The translations under genes were made by a program, and so were the position numbers. From Stegostoma tigrinum (Eukaryota), in assembly GCF_030684315.1 (NCBI RefSeq), contig NC_081387.1, positions 1,406,497-1,470,496 of the forward strand: DNA of 64,000 nt, written 5' to 3'. This document shows, piece by piece, positions 5,697-54,507 of the stretch. How positions within the stretch are numbered: the stretch's first letter is position 1; each line of letters starts with the position of its first letter. Under the pieces are notes generated by a model that saw nothing but the letters and a program-made list of their open reading frames with translations, made no database searches and was not told where the DNA came from.

Positions 5697-6725
5697 ACAG
5701 ATAGTCGGAACTGCAGATGCTGACGAATCTGAGATAACAAGGTGTGGAGCTGGGTGAACACAGCAGGCCAAGCAGCATCTTAGGAGCAGGAAGGCTGATG
5801 TTTCGGGCCAAGACCATTCTTCAGGAATGGGGGAGGGGAAGGGGGTTCTGAAATAAAGAGGGAGAGAGGGGGAGGCAGATAGAAGGTTGTCTCCCCTCCA
5901 ACCCCACCACACCCGGCACTTTTCCCTGCAACTGCAGGAAGTGCTACACCTGCCCTGACACCTACACCTCACCCCTCACCCCAATCCCAGGCCCCAAGGA
6001 GACTTTTCACATCAAGCAGATGTTCACCTGCACATCTGCTAATGTGGTATACTGCATCCGTTGCTCCCATTGTGGCCACCTGTACGTCAGGGAAGCCAAG
6101 CGGAGGCTTGGGGACCGCTTTGCAGAACACCTATGCAATAAACAACTGCACCTCCCAGTCGCAAATAATTTCAGCTCCCCCTCCCATTCCTGGCCCTCCT
6201 GCAGTGCCACAACGATGCTACCCAAATGTTCCAGGAACAGCAACTCATGTGCTGCTCGGGAACCTTGCAGCCCAATGTATCAATGTGGACTTCACAAGCT
6301 TCAAAATCTCCCCTCTACTACCACACCCCAAAACCAGCCCAGCTCATCCCTGCCTCCCTGACCTGCACTTCCTTCCACCTATCCTCTCCTCCCACTTCAA
6401 GCCCCACCCCCATCTCCTACCTCCTAACCTCATCCCACCCCCTTGACCTGTCCATCCCCCCTTGACTAACCTATCCCCTCCCTACCTCCCCACCTACACT
6501 CACCTTTACTTGGTCCATCTCCACATCTTTGACCTATCTGTCTCCTCCCCAACTATCTTCTCCTCTAGCCATCTTCTATCCACCTCCCCCTCTCTCCCTA
6601 TTTATTTCAGAACCCCCTCCCCCTCCCCCTCCCCCATTTCTGAAGAGGTGTCTTGAAATGTCAGCTTTCCTGCTCCTCTGATGCTGCTTGGCCTGCTGTG
6701 TTTATCCAGCTCTGCATCTTGTTAA
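5697..6725. mobile_element. Inverted-structure PLE (short minus tail 5697-5885, plus EN and tail 5890-6725), diverged
   Basis: GIY-YIG remnant NVVYCIRCSHCGHLY; opposed copies of the tail. Confidence 0.85.
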
Positions 6726-7292: not shown

Positions 7293-7571
7293 CAGCCTTC
7301 AGTTCGGTCTCTCCAATCTCCAAGTGTTTCAACAATAGCTCTTTACATTCCATCTCCAGGAACTGCCTTCTCAACTGGTTGTAGACTTTGTCTCTGTCAC
7401 ACTGTCTCTTGATCGTCTCGGTCCATGGTAAAAGTAATCTTCTCACCCAGTGCAAGTGATCCGTGTCAAACTTGAAGTAGTCCTTCCCATTCCAGGCATA
7501 CTCTTCCAGTACTCTTGTTGTCTCACCATCACAGATCTCACAGGCAGATATACGCTGAAGTGTGTTGATAG
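7293..7571 (-). CDS. MHC class I-like heavy chain, alpha2 exon (non-classical)
   Basis: Acceptor ttttaacattgaaag and donor G|gtgagt, phase 1-1, 279 bp. Translates (A)INTLQRISACEICDG...YAWNGKDYFKFD...W...FLEMECKELLLKHLEIGETELKA; the C101-C164 pair is present and the exon is in frame with alpha1. Confidence 0.95.
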
Positions 7572-8299
7572 CTTTCAATGTTAAAAACAAATCTACTCAG
7601 AATGAAATGCACAGAGACTGCACTCACCCCTCACTGTCATTCAAGCACACATCTCCATTCAGAATGAAATTCTCAGAGTTAATGTATCTGGTGCAATGTT
7701 TTCAGGAAAAGTGGAAAGAATAACTAGGCAGTGAGGGAAAATAAGGTGTATAGGAGTGAGAGAATAGGGAATGTTAACAGCAGAGGTCAGAAGAGTGGAA
7801 TGGGAGTGCAGGCAGGGGAGTTAGAGGTAAAGGGCAGGTAGGAGTGAAAGGGTGGCAGGGAAGAGAGATTGTGGAATTTTTTTTAAAAAATGCTATCGAA
7901 ATGGGAATTAAAAAGTCTGGCCATGGATGAGCAAGAGTGAAATGTTAAGAGTGAAATATTTACACAAAGGACGGTATCCCGGCATCAATCACCCCTTAAT
8001 GATGCATGGTCCCAAAACATTACCACTGGTTAAGGACTTCTCTCCTTTGAGGCTGTGAAACCTGTTGGGGTTTTCTGTTTTATTTTCAAATTCCAGCACT
8101 GCCCTTCTCTAGTTAGTCTTTTGGAATTCACATGACTGCACAGTCCTCACCATCATTCAAGCATACATTTCCACTCAGAATGAAATTCAGAAAGACTGCA
8201 CTGCTCATTGTTATTCAAATGCACATCTCCATTTAAAATCACCTAACCAGATGGAGCAAATTGATCAGATAGATCCTCAAATAAATAGATAAGAGCCTG

Positions 8300-9025
8300 A
8301 GTGAGAGGCTACACCTGGAGTACTGTGCGAAGTTTTGGTCTCTTTACCTGATAAAATCTGTAATGGCACTGGAAGAGGTGCAGAGGAGGTCACTATGTTG
8401 AGAGTTTAGCTTATGGGGAGAGATTGAGTAGATTGGGACTACGCTAATTGGAATTTAAAAGAATGAGGGAATTTATAGAAACATATGAAATTATGAAGGG
8501 AATACTTAAGATAGAACTAGGGATAGAAGCAGCAGTTCTGAGGAAGGGTCACTGGACCCGAAACATTAATTGTTTTCTCCTCCACAGATGCTGCCAGACC
8601 TTCTGAGCTTTTCCAGCAACTTTGTTTTTGTTCCTGATTTACAGCATCCACAGTTCTTTTGGTTTTTCTTTAAATAGAAGTAGGGCTGTTGTTTCCACGG
8701 GCAGATGAAAGTAAAACTAGGGGGCATAGCCTCAAAATAAAGGGGAGCAGATTTGGGACTGAGTTGAAGAGGAACTTCTTCTTTGGAAGGTTGTGAATCT
8801 GTCAAATTCCCTGCCCAGAGCAACAGTTGAGGCTACCTCATTGAATGTTTTAGGGGCAAGATAATGGATTTTTGAACAGTAAAGTTATGAAGAAATTATG
8901 TTTGGGGGAGTGCTGGTGAGTGGAACTGAACCAGTGAAAAGATCAGCCAAAATCTTATTGAGAAGCAGAGCAGGATCTATGCATCAGATGGCGTTTTCCT
9001 GTTCTTAATTCTGATCTTCTTATGA
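8300..9025 (+). mobile_element. CR1 LINE 3' fragment
   Basis: LEYCAKFWSLYL and RGHSLKIR homology; interrupted by a PLE-tail insertion. Confidence 0.8.
8538..8570 (+). ncRNA. Hammerhead motif of a second PLE-tail family
   Basis: CTGAGGA-a-GGGTC(ACTG)GACCC-GAAA-CATT; helix III carries a G>A change; lies in a ~140-bp insertion inside a CR1. Confidence 0.6.
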
Positions 9026-9049
9026 AATTATGAGGGACCAAAGAGGGAA

Positions 9050-9660
9050 AGAATGCTAATGTGGTAACCGTAACCAGGCAGTGAGGGACAATCGGGTGTA
9101 CAGGGGTGGGTGAGCAAGGAATGTAGGCAGCAGATATCAGGAGAGTGGAATGGGAATGCAGGAAGGAGAGTTAGTGGAAGAGGGGAGGCAGACATGAAAG
9201 AACCGAGTGGGCAGTTAGGGGAAGAGGGCAGGTAAGAGTGAAAAGAAGACAGAGGAAGAGGGATAGCAGAACATAAAACAAAAAAAACACTTGTTCTGGA
9301 AATGAGAAGTAACGGGTCTGGCATAGTGAGAGAGGGAGTGAAAGAGGAAGAGAGAAGCAGGAGGAAGGGGTGGGGGACATGAACTAGTGGGAGGAACAGT
9401 GGGATAGAAAGATAGAAAGAGGGCTGAAATGGGCAGGAAGTGGAGAGGTGACCAACAGGGAAGAACAGGAAGAGAGGAGCTAACAAAAGAGGGGACACGG
9501 AGAGTGGAAGGAAAAGGCTGGGAGCGAGAGATGTGGGAGCAGGAAAGAGAGGCAAACGCAATAAGTGAGGGGAAGAGGTGAATGAAGAGTGGGAGGGAAG
9601 TGAGGAGTGAAAGGGGAGCGAAAGAGCACAATGAAAGAGAAGACAAAGGAACAGTACATC
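9050..9660. repeat. Purine-rich (GA) low-complexity tract
   Basis: Strong A/G strand bias; source of the spurious hydrophobic minus-strand ORFs. Confidence 0.8.
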
Positions 9661-9744
9661 TAATGGTAAATAAAACAAAATATCGCTTGAGAAATCAGCA
9701 GTTCGGACGTATTTGTGAAAGAGGCACGTTTTGATTCTGATGAC

Positions 9745-10072
9745 TGGGTCCAGTAGTTAACACTGCTGCATAGGGCCCGGGTTTGGTTCCGCCCTTGGGT
9801 GATTCCTTAGGTGAGGAGTTTCCACATTCTCCCTGTGCCTGTGTGGGTTTCCTCTACGGGCTCCCGTTTCCTCCCACAGTCCAAAGGTATGCAGGTTAGG
9901 TAGTTTGGCCATGCTAAATGTCCCATAAAATACATAGGCTAAGTGGATTAGCCATGGAAAATTGAAATTTACAGGGATAGAGTAAGAGGTTGGGTCTGGA
10001 CGGGATGCTCTTCAAAGGTCAGTGTGTGGACCCAATGTGCCAAATGGCCTATTTCCACACCGTAGGGATTCC
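9745..10072 (+). mobile_element. HE1-type V-SINE in the MHC alpha1-alpha2 intron
   Basis: V-domain and tail; diverged head. Confidence 0.8.
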
Positions 10073-10155
10073 ATGGATACCTGTTTCCAGCTACTGTGCT
10101 GCTGAGGGGTGTATTTAAGATGCTGATCTGTGGAGAGAAGTTTAAGAGAACTCAC

Positions 10156-10416
10156 CGCCTGTCTGGTTGCTCAGGCTAATGGCATTCTGAAAACAGATAA
10201 ATGTACTTCGCTGCCAATTTTTTGCCATCTCCGTTTGTTTCTTCCAAAAATCAGGTCCCCGTCGATCTGCCATCCACCGTTGTCGCGGAATCATCTCCAT
10301 CCGATCACTGTCATAATGAATAATCTGTACATCATCCACAAAGCCAACAATCTGAAACTTTGGCAGACCCGGGATTGGGGTCATTGCTGTGTACAAATAC
10401 CGGAGAGAGTGGCAGC
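10156..10416 (-). CDS. MHC class I-like heavy chain, alpha1 exon (non-classical)
   Basis: Acceptor tctctgtttcag and donor G|gtgag, phase 1-1, 261 bp. Translates (G)CHSLRYLYTAMTPIPGLPKFQIVGFVDDVQIIHYDSD...PRQRWM...PDFWKKQT...NQTG, with typical class I alpha1 motifs and the N86 glycosylation site. Confidence 0.95.
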
Positions 10417-10750: not shown

Positions 10751-13700
10751 CGCAGCCTAAAGCGCCTGTCCCCAGTGTGATTTTTTTCTCCCTGTTTTGC
10801 TTACATCACAACTTGGAGTATTTCTACCATGTTGCGGTTGCAACTTTCCGCCACATTTATATGTGGCTTAGATAAATCAGCTGTGGTTTAGTTTTCGTTT
10901 CGGATCGGGACCCTTGGTCAACTTTTCTGCTCCTCCGATGCTGCCTGGCCTGCTGTGTTCCTCCAGCTCCACACTGTATTGTCTGACTCCAGCACCTGCG
11001 GTTCTTGCTATCTTCGTGTGGTTTCATTTGGTTGTATTTGCACCTTCGCCTGTCACAGAGTTACACAAGTAAATCCTACTCCTGGTCTGGGCCTCAAAAG
11101 TCCAGGCTGACATTCGAGTGGATGGCAGGAGTGCCACACTATTCAATCGACATATTTCAGTTTATACCATGAAGCTAAATGCCATGTGCTCTCTGCAGTG
11201 GATGAAAACAAGAGGCCAGGATCTAACGAATTGCAACAAAAAGTAACTGTTCATAACCTCTTCAATATATTTGAGAGATTGTTGCTGCGATCCCGTATTA
11301 AAACAGCAGCTGCACTTTTGTAAGTTCTCCAACTGATTTTAAAAGCATATTCAGATATTCACAGCCTGTGAGAGTTTCTTTTAAAAAATGCAAAATATCA
11401 CTGATAAACGTTGTGATTAAGAAGTTGTTCAGCTTGTTTCTCACGCAGCATTGTATTCGGGTACAATGGACTTGTTCCAAATAAGGAAGAGAATTTGCTA
11501 AATGAAACAAAACGAAGGGCTGCAGATTTTGAAAATTTGAAAACAAAGGACTCATGAAGAGTCACCGGACTCGAATCGTTTACGCTTCTTTCTTTCCACG
11601 TATGTTGCCAGATCTGTTGAGTTTCACCAGTAATTTCTGATTTTTCAGCCTGTTAAAGGACATTGACAGATTGAAAATGATTTGCAGTCAACTTTATGTG
11701 CACAGAAATGAAGTTAGTGATCAGGTATTTAAGAGAAGTTAACGTCTAAACAGAATGTTAGCTCTTGCCCCGAGAGGTTTGAAGGACAATTGGAAGCAAT
11801 TGATGTTCCCAATCCCTGAAGAACTGTGCTGATTCTAGTAAGATGGAGGCTATTCGGCCCATTGAGTCTGCGCTGACCCTCTGAACAGCATCCCGGCTGA
11901 TTCCCATAACCCCGAATTTACCATGTTTAATCCACTACGCCTGCACATCCCTGGGCACAACGGGACAAGTTACCTTCGCAAATCCACCGAAAGATGCACA
12001 TCTTTGGGATAGTTCATAGTAATTGACTTAATTTTAGGATCAAAGTTCAAATGTCCAGGAGGAGTATTAGAGAGTTGGATGCACGAAATCTGGAAGACTC
12101 TCAACAGATGGCTGTGGATCTCTGTGATCAAATGAAACTTGAAAAATTCCAACAGCGTTTGAACAAACAGAACATTGTGGATGCCTGGATTTGAAATAAA
12201 TGCAGAAAATGTGGGCCAGCAGGTTTGGATAGTGTCTGTAGATGGAGAAATTGATTAAGTATGGTCATATTTCCTCTGAGAAAAAAAAACTTCTTCCGTT
12301 TGTACATAATGACTACCTCAGTGAAAGGCACGACAACTGAACTGCACCAACCCTTTGTTAATTAGGAACTAAAACAAAGTCACTGGAAAAGCTCAGCAGG
12401 TCTGGCAGCATCTGTGAAGGTGAAAAGAGAGTTAACGTTTCGTTACCCTTCTTGACCCTTCCTGTGTTAATTAGATCGTGGTTTAAACTCGATGTGGTAA
12501 CAATCCTCGCCATGGGAGTTACTCCCTCATAAGTTGCTCCTTAGAAACTTGGCCTTAGTATTTTGGTCTCTCTCAATACCTATCTCTGTCTCTCTCATTC
12601 CAGCAACACGTCCCTACATTTTACAGCTACGCTGATGAATCATTTCCACTGTCCACTTCGATTCGACACGTCAAGATCGGTCTGACATTGAGTTCCTCTC
12701 TAACCCCACTACCCACTGACTGTTACTGGCATTAAGACCCTCTGCGACTTCAGTACCCACCTGCGGAGAGCCCTCCACACTGAAGGAGTAGCACTGCCAG
12801 AGCTAACATTGCTGTCATGACTAGTTCACGGGGAGTCCTGTAACGAGACAGCTCCTGGTTCTGTGAACTGCGCCCAGCATTCAGTGCAGACAACGTCCAG
12901 ATTTTCCTGTTGACTCAGATGCTTCGAGTGCTTTGTTTTCTTGGAGCTTCGCGCGAATCCGGATTCAAAGAGCCTGTTACTCAGGAGCCGCTCGTAAACG
13001 AACTTGCAGCAGAACAAGAATCCGCGACGGACACATTGAGAAGACAGGGTGGAGCGTCCACTCAGAAAAAGGCAGTGACTATGTCATCAGTTACTAGGTA
13101 GACAACATTGAGGAGATTGTGAAATCTGATCAAGGAAACACAAACTGGCTTGAAATTGACGAGATAAGTGGACAGGGAGAGTAGCAGATGGTGTAACATG
13201 AGGATTCAGAGTTAACAATTATTCCCTCAGCCCTGCTTTAACAAATACGTCATCGGCCCTAGTCCACCTTCTGCCCCATTCGCCCTGCTTTTTTTCAAAC
13301 TCCATTAGCCCCTCGCACTGATTTATGGCTGCATTTTTCACCCCACTGATTCGATATAATTTATTACTGTTACATGTACAGAGGTGCAGTGAAAAGTGTT
13401 CTCTTACATGTTTTGCAGGCAGAGCGCACTGTACAAATCCATCAAAGCAATTGCTCCCGCCAGCCCTGATTTCCCATTAAACCACTGGGCTCTGGTGCAC
13501 CTTTTAACCCCTGAGCCTTCTGCACCATTCACCCCACAGAATAGCAGAATTGTTACGGAGCAGAACGAGGCCATTCAGCCCATCGTGTCTGCAGCGGTTT
13601 TACTCACTGGTGCCAATCTCCCACCTTTCCTGATATCCCTGAACTCCATTGCTGCACAAACACTAACCCATTTGGATGCAGCAATTGAAAGTGCCTCCAC

Positions 13701-16521: not shown

Positions 16522-17946
16522 AAGATAACAAAGTGTGATGCTGGATGAACACAGCAGGCCAAGCAGCATCTCAGGAGCACAAAAGCTGACGTTTCGGGCC
16601 TAGACCCTTCATCAGAGATGGGGATGGGGAGAGGGTTCTGAGATAAATAGGGAGAGAGGGGGAAGTGGACCTAAAATGGATAGAGGAGAAGATATGTGGA
16701 GAGGGGAGTGTAGGTGGGGAGGTAGGGAGGGGATAGGTCAGTCCAGGAAGGACGGACAGGTCAAGGAGGCACGATGAGGCTGGTAGGTGGGAACTGGAGG
16801 AGCGGCTTGAGGTAGGAGGAGGGGGATAGGTGAGAGGAAGACAGGTTAGGGAGGCGGGGACAAGCTGGGCTGGTTTTGTGATGCAGTGGGGGGAGGGGGT
16901 GAGCTGGGCTGGTTTTGGGATGCAGTGGGGGAGGGGGAGGTTTTGAAGTCCGTGAAGCCCACAGTGATACCATTGGCTTGCAGGGTTCCCAAGCGGAATA
17001 TGAGTTGCTGTTCCTGCAACCTTTGGGTGGCATCATTGTGGCACTGCAGGAGGCACATGTCATCTGAGGAATGGGAAGGGGAGTTAAAATGATTCATGAC
17101 TGGAGGTGCAGTTGTTTATTGCGAACCGAGTGGACGTGTTCTGCAAAGCGGTCCCCAAGCCTCCGCTTGGTTTCCCCAGTGTAGAGGAAACCACACCGGG
17201 TATAATGGATACAGTGTACCACATTGGCAGATGTGCAGGTGAACATCTGCTTAATATGGAAAGTCATCTTGGGGCCTGGGATAGGGGTGAGGGAGGAGGT
17301 GTGGGGGCTAGTGTAGCACTTCCTGCGGTTGCAAGGGAAGGTGCCAGGAGTGGTGGGGTTGGAGAGGAGTGTGGAACGGACAAGGGAGTCATGGACAGAG
17401 TGGTCTCTCCGGAAAGCAGACAAGGGTGGGGATGGAAAAATGTCTTGGGTGTTGGGGTAAGTTTGTAGATGGCGGATGTATCGGAGGATGATGTGTTGTG
17501 TCCAGAGGTTGGTGGGGTGGTATGTGAGGATGACGGGGGTTCTTTTAGGGCATTTGTTGCAGGGGCGGGGTGTGAGGGATGTGTTGCGGGAAATGCGGGA
17601 GACACGGTCAAGGGTGTTCTGGACCACTGCGGGGGGTGGGGGGGAAGTTGCGGTCCTTGAAGAACGCGGACATCTGGGATGTTTGGGAGTGGAATGCCTC
17701 ATCCTGGGAGCAGATGCGGCAGAGGCGAAGGAATTGGGAATAGGGTGATGGAATTTTTGCAGGGGGCTGGGTAGGAGGATGTGTATTCTAGATAGCTGTG
17801 GGAGTCGGTGGGCTAGAAGTGGACATCAGTATTTAGCTGGTTGCCTGAGATGGAGACAGAAAAGTCCAGGAAGGTGAGGGATGTGTTGGAGATGGCCGAG
17901 GTAAACTTGAGGTTGGGGTGGAAGGTGTTGGTGAAGTGGATGAACT
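16522..17946 (-). mobile_element. 5'-truncated Penelope-like element (RT C-terminus, GIY-YIG, hammerhead tail)
   Basis: Frameshifted PLE ORFs; 12-bp TSD tcttgactgtct at 16510-16521 and 17947-17958. Confidence 0.9.
16588..16615 (-). ncRNA. Minimal type I hammerhead ribozyme motif
   Basis: Reverse complement reads CTGATGAAGGGTCTAGGCCCGAAACGTC, intact. Confidence 0.85.
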
Positions 17947-26314: not shown

Positions 26315-27385
26315 TCATTCCCCTCGTCCTCACACACCACCCCACCAACCTCCGGATACAACGCATCATCCTCCGACACTTCCGCCATCTACAATCCGAC
26401 CCCACCACCCAAGACATTTTTCCATCCCCAACCTTGTCTGCCTTCCGGAGAGACCACTTTCTCCGTGACTCCCTTGTTCGCTCCACACTGCCCTCCAACC
26501 CCACCACTCTGGCACCTTCCCCTGCAACCGCAGGAAGTCCTAAACTTGCCCCCACACCTCCTCCCTCACCCCTATCCCAGGCCCCAAGATGATTTGCCAT
26601 ATTAAGCAGAGGCTCACCTGCACATCTGCCAATGTGGTATACTGTATCCACTGTACCCGGTGTGGTTTCCTCTACATTGGGGAAACCAAGCGGAGGCTTG
26701 GAGACCGCTTTGCAGAACACCTCCGCTCGGTTCGCAATAAACAACTGCACCTCCCAGTCGCGAATCATTTCAACTCCCCCTCCCATTCTTTAGATGACAT
26801 GTCCATCATGGGCCTCCTGCAGTGCCACAATGATGCCACCCGAAGGTTGCAGGAACAGCAACTCATATTCCACTTGGGAACCCTGCAGCCCAATGGTATC
26901 AATGAGGACTTCACCAGCTTCAAAAACTCCCCTTCCCCCACCGCATCCCAAAACCAGCCCAGTTCGTCCCCTCCCCCCACTGCGTCCCAAAACCAGCCCA
27001 GCTCATCCCCTCCCCTCACTGCATCCCTAACCTGTTCTTCCTCTCACCCACCCCTTCCTCCCACCTCAAGCCACACCTCCATCTCCTACCTACTAACCTC
27101 ATCCCACCTCCTTGACCTGTCCATCCTCCCCAGACTGATCTATCCCGTCCCTACCTCCCCACCTATACTCTCTCCACCTATCTTCTTTTCTCTTCATCTT
27201 CGGTCCACCTCCCCCTCTCTCCCTATTTATTCCAGAACCCTCACCCCATCCCCCTCTCTGATGAAGGGTCTAGGCCTGAAACGTCAGCTTTTGTGCTCCT
27301 GAGATGTTGCTTGGCCTGCTGTGTTCATCCAGCTTCACACTTTGTTGTCTTGGATTCTCCAGCATCTGCAGTTCCCATTATCTCT
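26315..27385 (+). mobile_element. 5'-truncated Penelope-like element (GIY-YIG, hammerhead, full 3' tail)
   Basis: ORF 26589-27302 contains NVVYCIHCTRCGFLYIGET; tail ends ...gcagttcccattatctct. Confidence 0.9.
27258..27285 (+). ncRNA. Minimal type I hammerhead ribozyme motif
   Basis: CTGATGAAGGGTCTAGGCCTGAAACGTC, one C>T change in helix II. Confidence 0.75.
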
Positions 27386-52038: not shown

Positions 52039-53859
52039 TTAGGGAGGCAGAGACAGGTTGGACTGGTTTTGGGATGCAGTGGGTGGGGGGGAAGAGCTGA
52101 GCTGATTGTGTGGTGCAGTGGGGGGAGGGGACGAACTGGGCTGGTTTAGGGATGCAGTGGGGGAAGGTGAGATTTTGAAACTGGTGAAGTCCACATTGAT
52201 ACCATTAGGCTGCAGGGTTCCCAGGCGGAATATGAGTTGCTGTTCCTGCAACCTTCGGGTGGCATCATTGTGGCACTGCAGGAGGCCCATGATGGACATG
52301 TCATCTAGAGAATGGGAGGGGGAGTGGAAATGGTTTGCAACTGGGAGGTGCAGTTGTTTGTTGCGAACTGAGCGGAGGTGTTCTGCAAAGCGGTCTCCAA
52401 GCCTCTGCTTGGTTTCCCCAATGTAGAGGAAGCCACACCGGGTACAGTGGATGCAGTATACCACATTGGCAGATGTGCAGGTGAACCTCTGCTTAATGTG
52501 GAATGTCATCTTGGGGCCTGGGATAGGGGTGAGGGAGGAGGTGTGGGGGCAAGTGTAGCATTTCCTGCGGTTGCAGGGGAAGGTGCCGGGTGTGGTGGGG
52601 TTGGAGGGCAGTGTGGAGAGAACAAGGGAGTCACAGAGAGAGTTGTCTCTCCGGAAAGCAGACAGGGGTGGGGATGGAAAAATGTCTTGGGTGGTGGGGT
52701 CGGATTGTAAATGGCGGAATTGTCGGAGGATGATGCATTGTATCCGGAGGTTGGTAGGGTGGTGTGTGAGAACGAGGGGGATCCTCTTTGGGCGGTTGTG
52801 GCGGGGGCGGGATGTGAGGGATGTGTTGCGGGAAATGCGGGAGACGCGGTCAAGGGCGTTCTCGATCACTGTGGGGGGAAAGTTGCGGTCCTTGAAGAAC
52901 TTGGACATCTGGGATGTGCGGGAGTGGAATGTCTTATCGTTGGAGCAGATGCGGCGGAGGCGGAGGAATTGGGAATAGGGGATGGAATTTTTGCAGGAGG
53001 GTGGGTGGGAGGAGGTGTATTCTAGGTCGCTGTGGGAGTCGGTGGGTTTGAAATGGACATCAGTTACAAGCTGGTTGCCTGAGATGGAGACTGAGAGGTC
53101 CAGGAAGGTGAGGGATGTGCTAGAGATGGCCCAGGTGAACTGAAGGTTGGGGTGGAAGGTGTTGGTGAAGTGGATGAACTGTTCGAGCTCCTCTGGGGAG
53201 CAAGAGGCAGCGCCGATACAGTCATCAATGTACCGGAGGAAGAGGTGGGGTTTGGGGCCTGTGTAGGTGCGGAAGAGGGACTGTTCCACGTACCCTACAA
53301 AGAGGCAGGCATAGCTGGGGCCCATGCGGGTGCCCATGGCCACCCCCTTAGTCTGTAGGAAGTGGGAGGAGTCAAAAGAGAAGTTGTTGAGGGTGAGGAC
53401 GAGTTTAGCTAGGCGGATGAGGGTGTCGGTGGAGGGGGACTGGTTGGGCCTGCGGGACAGGAAGAAGCGGAGGGCCTTGAGGCCATCTGCATGCGGAATG
53501 CAGTTGTATAGGGACTGGACGTCCATGGTGAAGATGAGGTGTTGGGGGCCAGGGAATTGGAAGTCCTGGAGGAGGTGGAGGGCGTGGGTGGTGTCACGGA
53601 CGTAGGTGGGGAGTTCCTGGACCAAAGGGGAGACAATGGAGTCCAGATAGGTGGAGATGAGTTCGGTGGGGCAGGAGCAGGCTGAGACGATGGGTCGACA
53701 ATGATCGAGAACGCCCTTGACCGCGTCTCCCGCATTTCCCGCAACACATCCCTCACACCCCGCCCCCGCCACAACCACCCAAAGAGGATCCCCCTCATTC
53801 TCACACACCATCGTACCAACCTCCGGATACAACGCATCATCCTCCGACACTTCCGCCAT
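52039..53859 (-). CDS. Penelope-type reverse transcriptase + GIY-YIG endonuclease (5'-truncated; first ~54 aa derive from the antisense of the inverted arm)
   Basis: RT motifs RPIVS, FTMDVQSLY, GVAMGTRMGPSYACLF, LRYIDD, FLDL; endonuclease NVVYCIHCTRCGFLYIGET..RL..RF.EH with the Cys-rich linker; no stops in 606 codons. Confidence 0.9.
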   Translation of the reverse strand: MAEVSEDDALYPEVGTMVCENEGDPLWVVVAGAGCEGCVAGNAGDAVKGVLDHCRPIVSACSCPTELISTYLDSIVSPLVQELPTYVRDTTHALHLLQDFQFPGPQHLIFTMDVQSLYNCIPHADGLKALRFFLSRRPNQSPSTDTLIRLAKLVLTLNNFSFDSSHFLQTKGVAMGTRMGPSYACLFVGYVEQSLFRTYTGPKPHLFLRYIDDCIGAASCSPEELEQFIHFTNTFHPNLQFTWAISSTSLTFLDLSVSISGNQLVTDVHFKPTDSHSDLEYTSSHPPSCKNSIPYSQFLRLRRICSNDKTFHSRTSQMSKFFKDRNFPPTVIENALDRVSRISRNTSLTSRPRHNRPKRIPLVLTHHPTNLRIQCIILRQFRHLQSDPTTQDIFPSPPLSAFRRDNSLCDSLVLSTLPSNPTTPGTFPCNRRKCYTCPHTSSLTPIPGPKMTFHIKQRFTCTSANVVYCIHCTRCGFLYIGETKQRLGDRFAEHLRSVRNKQLHLPVANHFHSPSHSLDDMSIMGLLQCHNDATRRLQEQQLIFRLGTLQPNGINVDFTSFKISPSPTASLNQPSSSPPPTAPHNQLSSSPPPTASQNQSNLSLPP

Positions 53860-54507
53860 TTACAATCCGACCCCACCACCCAAGACATTTTTCCATCCCC
53901 ACCCCTGTCTGCTTTCCGGAGAGACCACTCTCTCCGTGACTCCCTTGTTCGCTCCACACTGCCCTCCAACCCCACCACACCCGGCACCTTCCCCTGCAAC
54001 CGCAGGAAATGCTACACTTGCCCCCACACCTCCTCCCTCACCCCTATCCCAGGCCCCAAGATGACATTCCACATTAAGCAGAGGTTCACCTGCACATCTG
54101 CCAATGTGGTATACTGCATCCACTGTACCCAGTGTGGCTTCCTCTACATTGGGGAAACCAAGCAGAGGCTTGGAGACCGCTTTGCAGAACACCTCCGCTC
54201 AGTTCGCAACAAACAACTGCACCTCCCAGTTGCAAACCATTTCCACTCCCCCTCCCATTCTCTAGATGACATGTCCATCATGGGCCTCCTGCAGTGCCAC
54301 AATGATGCCACCCGAAGGTTGCAGGAACAGCAACTCATATTCCGCCTGGGAACCCTGCAGCCTAATGGTATCAATGTGGACTTCACTAGTTTCAAAATCT
54401 CCCCTTCCCCTACTGCATCCCTAAACCAGCCCAGTTCGTCCCCTCCCCCCACTGCACCACACAACCAGCCCAGCTCTTCCCCCCCACCCACTGCATCCCA
54501 AAACTAG
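53701..54507 (+). CDS. PLE RT C-terminal/linker + GIY-YIG endonuclease fragment (inverted arm)
   Basis: 268-aa ORF nearly identical to the C-terminal half of the 606-aa ORF. Confidence 0.8.
   Translation: MIENALDRVSRISRNTSLTPRPRHNHPKRIPLILTHHRTNLRIQRIILRHFRHLQSDPTTQDIFPSPPLSAFRRDHSLRDSLVRSTLPSNPTTPGTFPCNRRKCYTCPHTSSLTPIPGPKMTFHIKQRFTCTSANVVYCIHCTQCGFLYIGETKQRLGDRFAEHLRSVRNKQLHLPVANHFHSPSHSLDDMSIMGLLQCHNDATRRLQEQQLIFRLGTLQPNGINVDFTSFKISPSPTASLNQPSSSPPPTAPHNQPSSSPPPTASQN

Follow-up and report, generated by a model that had tools for sequence, protein, structure and literature searches.

A non-classical MHC class I gene of the zebra shark with four extra platform cysteines, a probable floor disulfide and a tentative second one across the groove

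An intact MHC class I gene of the zebra shark (Stegostoma tigrinum), lying on the minus strand of the window (the whole stretch of DNA analysed, 64,000 nucleotides) and extending beyond its left end, has lost most of its peptide anchors and carries four extra cysteines in its alpha1-alpha2 platform. The product may well be a surface protein associated with beta2-microglobulin (beta2m) that does not present peptides and acts as a fixed ligand, its floor stapled at one edge and its F-pocket end remodelled. A cross-strand disulfide between C2 and C104, pinning the N-terminal strand to the alpha2 floor, is probable from the sequence and the predicted structure; one between C77 and C147 is a tentative proposal, and would form only upon collapse of the groove or of its F-pocket end.

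The limits of the region singled out by the earlier note, 7293 and 10416, proved to be exact ends of the alpha2 and alpha1 exons on the minus strand. Seven exons reproduce the RefSeq model P0003 (Stegostoma tigrinum, 356 aa), with AG/GT at every junction and a frame that is open throughout:

12761..12818, minus strand: coding part of the leader exon, an exact match to residues 1-19 of P0003, with the ATG at 12818 and the donor GTGGGT
10156..10416, minus strand: alpha1 exon, 87 codons, AG/GT, phase 1, with Y7 and the N86 sequon retained, Y59F and R84L
7293..7571, minus strand: alpha2 exon, 93 codons, AG/GT, phase 1, with the canonical C101-C164 and two inserted residues ahead of the alpha2-1 helix
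7293..7571, minus strand: alpha2 substitutions G100A, T143I, K146Q, W147C, Y159F, W167L and Y171H, from the alignment
7293..7293, minus strand: alpha2 splice donor, joined to alpha3 in the RefSeq model and directly to the first cytoplasmic exon, in frame, in a contig of run X1
G000:C44:1403762-1404037, minus strand: alpha3 exon, on the same contig beyond the window's left end
C44 about 1403365-1403490, minus strand: transmembrane exon, on the same contig beyond the window's left end
C44 about 1398282-1398314 and about 1397721-1397759, minus strand: two cytoplasmic exons, on the same contig beyond the window's left end

The make-up of a class I heavy chain is thus present (leader, alpha1, alpha2, C1-set alpha3, transmembrane and cytoplasmic exons), with the conserved disulfide cysteines C101-C164 and an alpha3 pair, and P0003 matched Pfam MHC_I with E=8e-36. 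By comparison with class I homologues, the signal peptide would end in GLSA, making G residue 1 and C residue 2 of the mature chain. Of two shorter RefSeq isoforms (X2, X3), one lacks a stretch of 25 alpha3 residues and the other both the leader and the first part of alpha1. The acceptor of the alpha2 exon looks weak. The earlier note had missed both the insertion ahead of the alpha2-1 helix and a ninth ectodomain cysteine, located in the stalk (residue 301 of P0003).

The earlier note had placed the extra cysteines at HLA positions 2, 77, 104 and 147 by hand, and the alignment and codon positions confirmed all four:

10412..10414, minus strand: C2 codon TGC, the residue that opens strand 1 of the model
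10193..10195, minus strand: C77 codon TGT, alpha1 helix, F-pocket position; AAT (Asn) in UAA-2, two changes away
7540..7542, minus strand: C101 codon, canonical
7531..7533, minus strand: C104 codon TGT, the residue that closes the first alpha2 strand of the model; TGT also in the broken sister copy
7399..7401, minus strand: C147 codon TGT; the same in the X1 contig, AGT in the broken sister copy, TGG in UAA and UAA-2
7345..7347, minus strand: C164 codon, canonical

A search for class I platforms found 185 rows, reduced to 182 by dropping the gene's own three isoforms; other isoforms and near-identical cluster members were included, so that the rows are not independent. The numbering is supported by the columns of C101 (C in 181/182 other platforms), C164 (C in 177/182), C147 (W in 149/182) and C77 (N, S or D in 128/182). 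At the single sites, C2 was present in three of these platforms (isoforms of one gene), C77 in none, C104 in one (P0157) and C147 in two (P0054 and P0061, both without C77), while neither the C2+C104 pair nor the C77+C147 pair was found in any of the 182. The other platforms had on average 0.43 non-canonical cysteines, and the zebra-shark gene was alone among 183 rows in having six platform cysteines. Assembly error is an unlikely origin of the cysteines, since contigs from a single DNA sample of organism B (runs X2-X4), which may be the source of the window, matched both exons with zero differences. By a rough estimate made without coordinates, placing four cysteines at random would produce one direct cross-strand pair a few times in a hundred.

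Y7 was the only one of the eight peptide anchors kept in the alignment (changed: Y59F, R84L, T143I, K146Q, W147C, Y159F and Y171H), and W167L is a further loss beside them; all nine residues are kept in P0006, P0022 and P0037. With 1/8 anchors kept and W167 lost, the gene is therefore non-classical, and because seven of the eight are gone the protein is likely no peptide presenter, in support of the class assignment made in the earlier note. The structural core is conserved, including Q96, D122 and N86, and the alpha3 contact motif PNHDGTYQ is retained; from Q96, D122 and this motif, the full-length form is predicted to associate with beta2m. An AlphaFold2 model based on a 98-row alignment, used through DSSP, has the class I fold (mean pLDDT 86; 96-97 across most of the platform), and its best structural matches, MR1 and classical chains, had Z scores within 1 of each other. 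Because that alignment consists mostly of open-groove homologues, the model is unable to test groove closure. FcRn and HFE were absent among the 50 structural matches listed, which excludes nothing.

All 18 alpha1 matches in the genome were on contig C44, where the gene (1.40-1.42 Mb) lies between a UAA-like gene (1.09 Mb) and a UAA-2 orthologue (1.74 Mb), each within about 0.3 Mb. Proteasome-subunit exons, which from their position are presumably psmb8/9, were detected about 0.15 Mb away (1.24-1.27 Mb). The location adjoining the class Ia gene is that of the Ia-like/UAA-2 group, a group flanked by zinc-finger gene arrays; no frames with two C2H2 motifs were found within the window or 100 kb downstream, part of which reads N. 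The alpha3 and tail are of UAA-2 type, the alpha3 being 62% identical to UAA-2 as against at most 57% for the other intact class I alpha3 matches. It is not of UAA type (46% identity to the alpha3 of the 1.09 Mb gene) and falls outside the UAA+UBA alpha3 clade (support 95/90), in a UAA-2-type group of seven rows with weak support of its own (89/24); the conserved anchors of classical class Ia (UAA) are likewise all missing but one. The alpha2, in turn, is not of UAA-2 type: it groups nearer UBA alpha2, on a very long branch (0.96-1.23), and a clade with UAA-2 alpha2 was rejected (AU p=0.01, for a group chosen after seeing the tree and subject to the long branch).

The UDA, UCA/UEA, UFA and UGA lineages match other loci by eye (C44 5.5-7.1 Mb), and the alpha1 is 30-40% identical to them; an identity with the CD1-like UFA/UGA genes, which are among these other loci, was likewise discarded. 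As to whether the lineage is already described, which the earlier note had left open, phylogeny and matching set the gene apart from UAA, UDA, UCA/UEA, UFA and UGA, with a UAA-2-type alpha3 and a UBA-like alpha2. In the accessible part of the supplement of PMC10751288, the 1.74 Mb gene matched the nurse shark UAA-2 by eye, and the present gene matched none of the 26 named query sequences (by eye); additional MHC-Ia-like genes near the Ia gene, varying in number, are cited in the accessible text as unpublished data. Protein and HMMER searches, limited in extent and weak as evidence of absence, yielded no annotated orthologue and only the gene itself at high identity, and no description of the gene was found in the literature searched, mostly papers open without subscription.

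Run X1 derives from organism A and is taken as RNA by guess only. Its alpha2 contig (428 bases) showed 15 differences from the gene in 268 bases, with no gap, and its alpha1 contig (181 bases, 10207-10387) showed nine, the C2 and C77 codons lying outside the covered range. Eleven of the alpha2 differences were listed (six synonymous, five non-synonymous), giving a dN/dS of 0.20-0.30 (p 0.01-0.045 depending on transition weight); the remaining four of the 15, located towards the two ends of the contig, in the area of the C101 and C104 codons, were left out of this calculation. The alpha2 is under purifying selection. Compared with UAA-2, dN/dS was 0.19 for alpha1, 0.50 for alpha2 and 0.23 for alpha3, with dS near saturation. 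Canonical splice sites, an open frame and a dN/dS of 0.2-0.3 against the orthologous contig speak against the pseudogene with dN/dS near 1 that the earlier note had contemplated. A broken sister copy does exist at C44 about 0.59-0.62 Mb: its alpha2 contains stops, its alpha1 is truncated and its alpha3 is frameshifted.

The X1 alpha2 contig runs, in frame, into 30/30 bases of the first cytoplasmic exon, and because the joined bases are about 15.5 kb apart in the genome, the join is a splice junction. This form, seen in the sole X1 contig on the alpha2 exon at 88% likeness (depth 6), skips alpha3 and the transmembrane exon and, read from its bases, would yield a secreted protein of alpha1 and alpha2 only; it may be a genuine secreted isoform, may reflect that organism A has lost those exons, or may be noise of splicing.

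The earlier note had held C2 and C104 to be cross-strand neighbours, and the model agrees: they stand at matching ends of two central antiparallel strands of 11 residues each (21-31 and 110-120), which end on C21 (C2) and C120 (C104). The strand ends fit the 3-103 register extended to 2-104, the pairing being the one that the DSSP assignment suggests; cross-strand disulfides prefer non-hydrogen-bonded sites. C101-x-x-C104 offers an alternative pairing by its spacing. The broken sister copy has both C2 (TGT instead of TGC, a synonymous change) and C104, which agrees with the co-occurrence expected in the earlier note, but C2 without C104 was found in the neighbouring UAA-2 gene of the same genome, and C147 without C77 in HLA-G and two class I proteins, so that co-occurrence held only in part. 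Because the UAA-2 orthologues of the bamboo shark (P0020) and the nurse shark have S2, C2 arose separately in the zebra-shark UAA-2, where it is tolerated alone. Recent gene conversion was rejected as the source of that C2, as the 5' ends of the alpha1 exons differ at many synonymous sites (pS 0.67).

Residues 77 and 147 lie on opposite helices and both point into one pocket. At the first of them, C77 is two base changes away from AAT and replaces a conserved N/S/D; at the second, the C147 codon is unchanged in X1, although codon 146 differs, and the AGT of the broken sister copy needs one base change to become Cys and two to become Trp. None of the four C-terminal anchors remains, and the pocket-facing residues S73, C77 and A81 (L81A) are small. 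A disulfide spans under about 7 A between C-alpha atoms, and we know of no natural helix-to-helix disulfide across the groove in vertebrate class I; no description of a natural 77-147 bond was found in the literature searched, for the most part papers outside subscription. The classical helices are ~18 A apart at the groove centre (PMC1174912), and narrower in FcRn, HFE, MIC-A and MILL2 (PMC1174912, PMC6193965), according to the accessible parts of these papers. Because the classical spacing far exceeds disulfide range, C77-C147 would need the groove to collapse.

That both bonds form and shut the F-pocket end, leaving an alpha1-alpha2 unit stable without peptide and possibly without beta2m, the secreted two-domain isoform included, is rather unlikely. 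Such a structure would agree with the occurrence, in one lineage, of two cysteines that face one pocket and are found elsewhere in 0/182 and 2/182 platforms, with the two base changes behind C77 and the retention of C147 in X1, with the missing C-terminal anchors, the small residues and the insertion before the alpha2-1 helix, and with the skipping of alpha3 and the transmembrane exon, in frame, in the only X1 alpha2 contig; collapsed grooves are, moreover, known in FcRn, HFE, MIC-A and MILL2. However, a large helix movement would be required, C147 stands alone in HLA-G, P0054 and P0061, the beta2m contacts and alpha3 are intact and under purifying selection, the skipped form is one contig of depth 6, and the duck floor disulfide discussed below gave no peptide-free stability. 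We regard as improbable, too, a lineage that has both inter-domain disulfides (C2-C104 and C77-C147) and is partly secreted as an alpha3-less, beta2m-free, two-domain soluble ligand or decoy.

There is little probability that the thiols of C77 and C147 stay free, in an F pocket that is open and enlarged, and trap a Cys-bearing ligand or a metal, or that C2, C104 or the stalk C301 links chains into dimers. Because the ectodomain has nine cysteines in total, at least one is unpaired; W147C and L81A remove bulk and can enlarge the pocket rather than close it, C2 is tolerated alone in UAA-2, and HLA-G, which with HLA-B27 forms disulfide-linked dimers, uses C147 between chains. Nevertheless, C2 and C104 are in exact cross-strand register in the model, and each of the two subfamily members has the pair. 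Relaxed decay of a duplicate whose cysteines arose by drift and have no role is very unlikely: the alpha2 branch is very long (0.96-1.23), the alpha2 acceptor looks weak, the sister copy is broken, no annotated orthologue appeared in limited protein searches, and the isoforms X2 and X3 and the X1 splice form, all without essential parts, may reflect loose splicing in a decaying gene, but the frame is open with canonical junctions in 7/7 exons, dN/dS against X1 is 0.2-0.3, the structural core with Q96, D122 and N86 is conserved, and six platform cysteines are the extreme of 183 rows.

The preferred reading, a beta2m-associated surface protein with a stapled floor edge, would work as follows. 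Having lost seven of its eight anchors, the protein would no longer display peptides; the C2-C104 bond would tie the N-terminal strand to the floor in alpha2; C77 and C147 would line a remodelled F-pocket end, bonding only if that end collapses. The full-length form would reach the surface with beta2m and there, by analogy with closed-groove class I-like proteins, might serve as a ligand of fixed structure, recognised by an innate-type receptor or a binding partner.

To our knowledge, none of the closed-groove class I-like proteins closes its groove by a 77-147 disulfide. FcRn, HFE, MIC-A/B, RAE-1beta, T22 and MILL2 (PMC1174912, PMC6193965) resemble the present gene, in the sections of those papers available, in anchor loss and a likely ligand-free role, but they are not its orthologues, and groove closure is here only a proposal. 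Nurse shark UAA-2 and the elasmobranch MHC-Ia-like genes (Verissimo et al. 2023, PMC10751288, in its accessible part) share the class Ia neighbourhood and a similar alpha3; UAA-2, however, keeps all peptide anchors, whereas the present gene has lost 7/8. Duck Anpl-UAA*01 has a natural Cys95-Cys112 floor disulfide, formed despite a geometry judged unfavourable, which aided peptide binding and not peptide-free folding or stability (PMC5487541, available sections); it is likewise an extra cross-strand floor bond, but within alpha2 and in a classical peptide presenter. The teleost P-lineage (C36, C67) and S-lineage (C6-C9, C48, C100) are likewise non-classical, with anchors lost and extra platform cysteines of unproven pairing, but at other positions, and in the part of PMC4364491 available none links alpha1 to alpha2 at 2-104 or 77-147. 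HLA-G carries C147 without a C77 partner in the alignment and shares exon skipping with the present gene; unlike the latter, it presents peptides. Intermolecular C42-C147 bonds (PMC11276036) and exon-skipped, soluble isoforms (PMC4000973) of HLA-G are reported in the accessible text of these papers. The "distinct kind" of receptor or ligand proposed in the earlier note was an overstatement, since both closed-groove class I-like proteins and extra cysteines in the platform have precedents.

If only C2-C104 forms, the gene is a modest addition to the known extra platform disulfides. Should the 77-147 bond exist, it would set a precedent for designing stable class I molecules that need no peptide, and a doubly locked, secreted platform would be a natural counterpart of the engineered peptide-free molecules. 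Shark non-classical class I genes bear on how early the MHC fold was reused beyond peptide display; as a recent derivative of the class Ia region, with its anchors shed and inter-domain cysteines added, this gene would capture the change of role while it is under way.

In a contig from a sequencing run of organism A (run X1, RNA by guess), the end of alpha2 (window position 7293) was joined directly to the first cytoplasmic exon (L028:1817, beyond the left end of the window) with the reading frame preserved; alpha3 and the transmembrane exon were left out. Judging from the junction, this alpha2-to-cytoplasmic splice form would encode a secreted alpha1-alpha2 protein in organism A. In the gene studied, the stalk and tail carry cysteines that are candidates for an interchain dimer and palmitoylation.

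Features of the gene studied and of its contig (G000:C44)
L028:6869-6994: stalk cysteine (residue 301) and juxtamembrane cytoplasmic cysteine (residue 331)
0.59-0.62 Mb (L063, L065, L066): broken sister copy of the gene studied; alpha2 on the minus strand, alpha3 and an alpha1 fragment on the plus strand
About 1.099 Mb (L064:1025-1290): alpha1 exon of a UAA-like classical gene
About 1.74 Mb (L002, L024, L039): UAA-2 orthologue
5.5-7.1 Mb and 10.7-11.2 Mb: clusters of class Ib loci
Window 52042-54504, 26544-27299, 5852-6446 and 17097-17825: fragments of one repeat family
L029:917-1504: integrase-core-like retroelement fragment, directly downstream of the gene studied

The exons of the broken sister copy also lie in an unexpected order, and its mixed arrangement reflects either local inversions or misassembly. 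The frame of the UAA-like alpha1 exon shifts near codon 71-72, inside a G run, probably through a homopolymer assembly error. The UAA-2 orthologue, with a cluster identity of at least 90% to bamboo shark, retained every anchor; compared with bamboo and nurse shark, its S2C change was specific to zebra shark, and a cysteine near position 54 was common to all three species. Class Ib loci, named by eye against the supplement sequences (PMC10751288), included matches to UDA (L008) and UFA (L009), a UGA-like pair (L012/L014 and L058/L059) whose alpha3 sequences are identical, a UCA/UEA-type array and UBA.

The repeat fragment at 52042-54504 gave weak RVT_1 and GIY-YIG matches, below the Pfam cut-off, and by our reading the family appears Penelope-like; the rve match of the downstream retroelement fragment (E=3e-7) was likewise below cut-off.

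In Heptranchias perlo, P0004 and P0005 are multicopy class I genes with a UAA-2-type alpha3 and with platforms placed outside the UAA/UAA-2 alpha2 clade, a combination which suggests that domain mosaics are common in this group.
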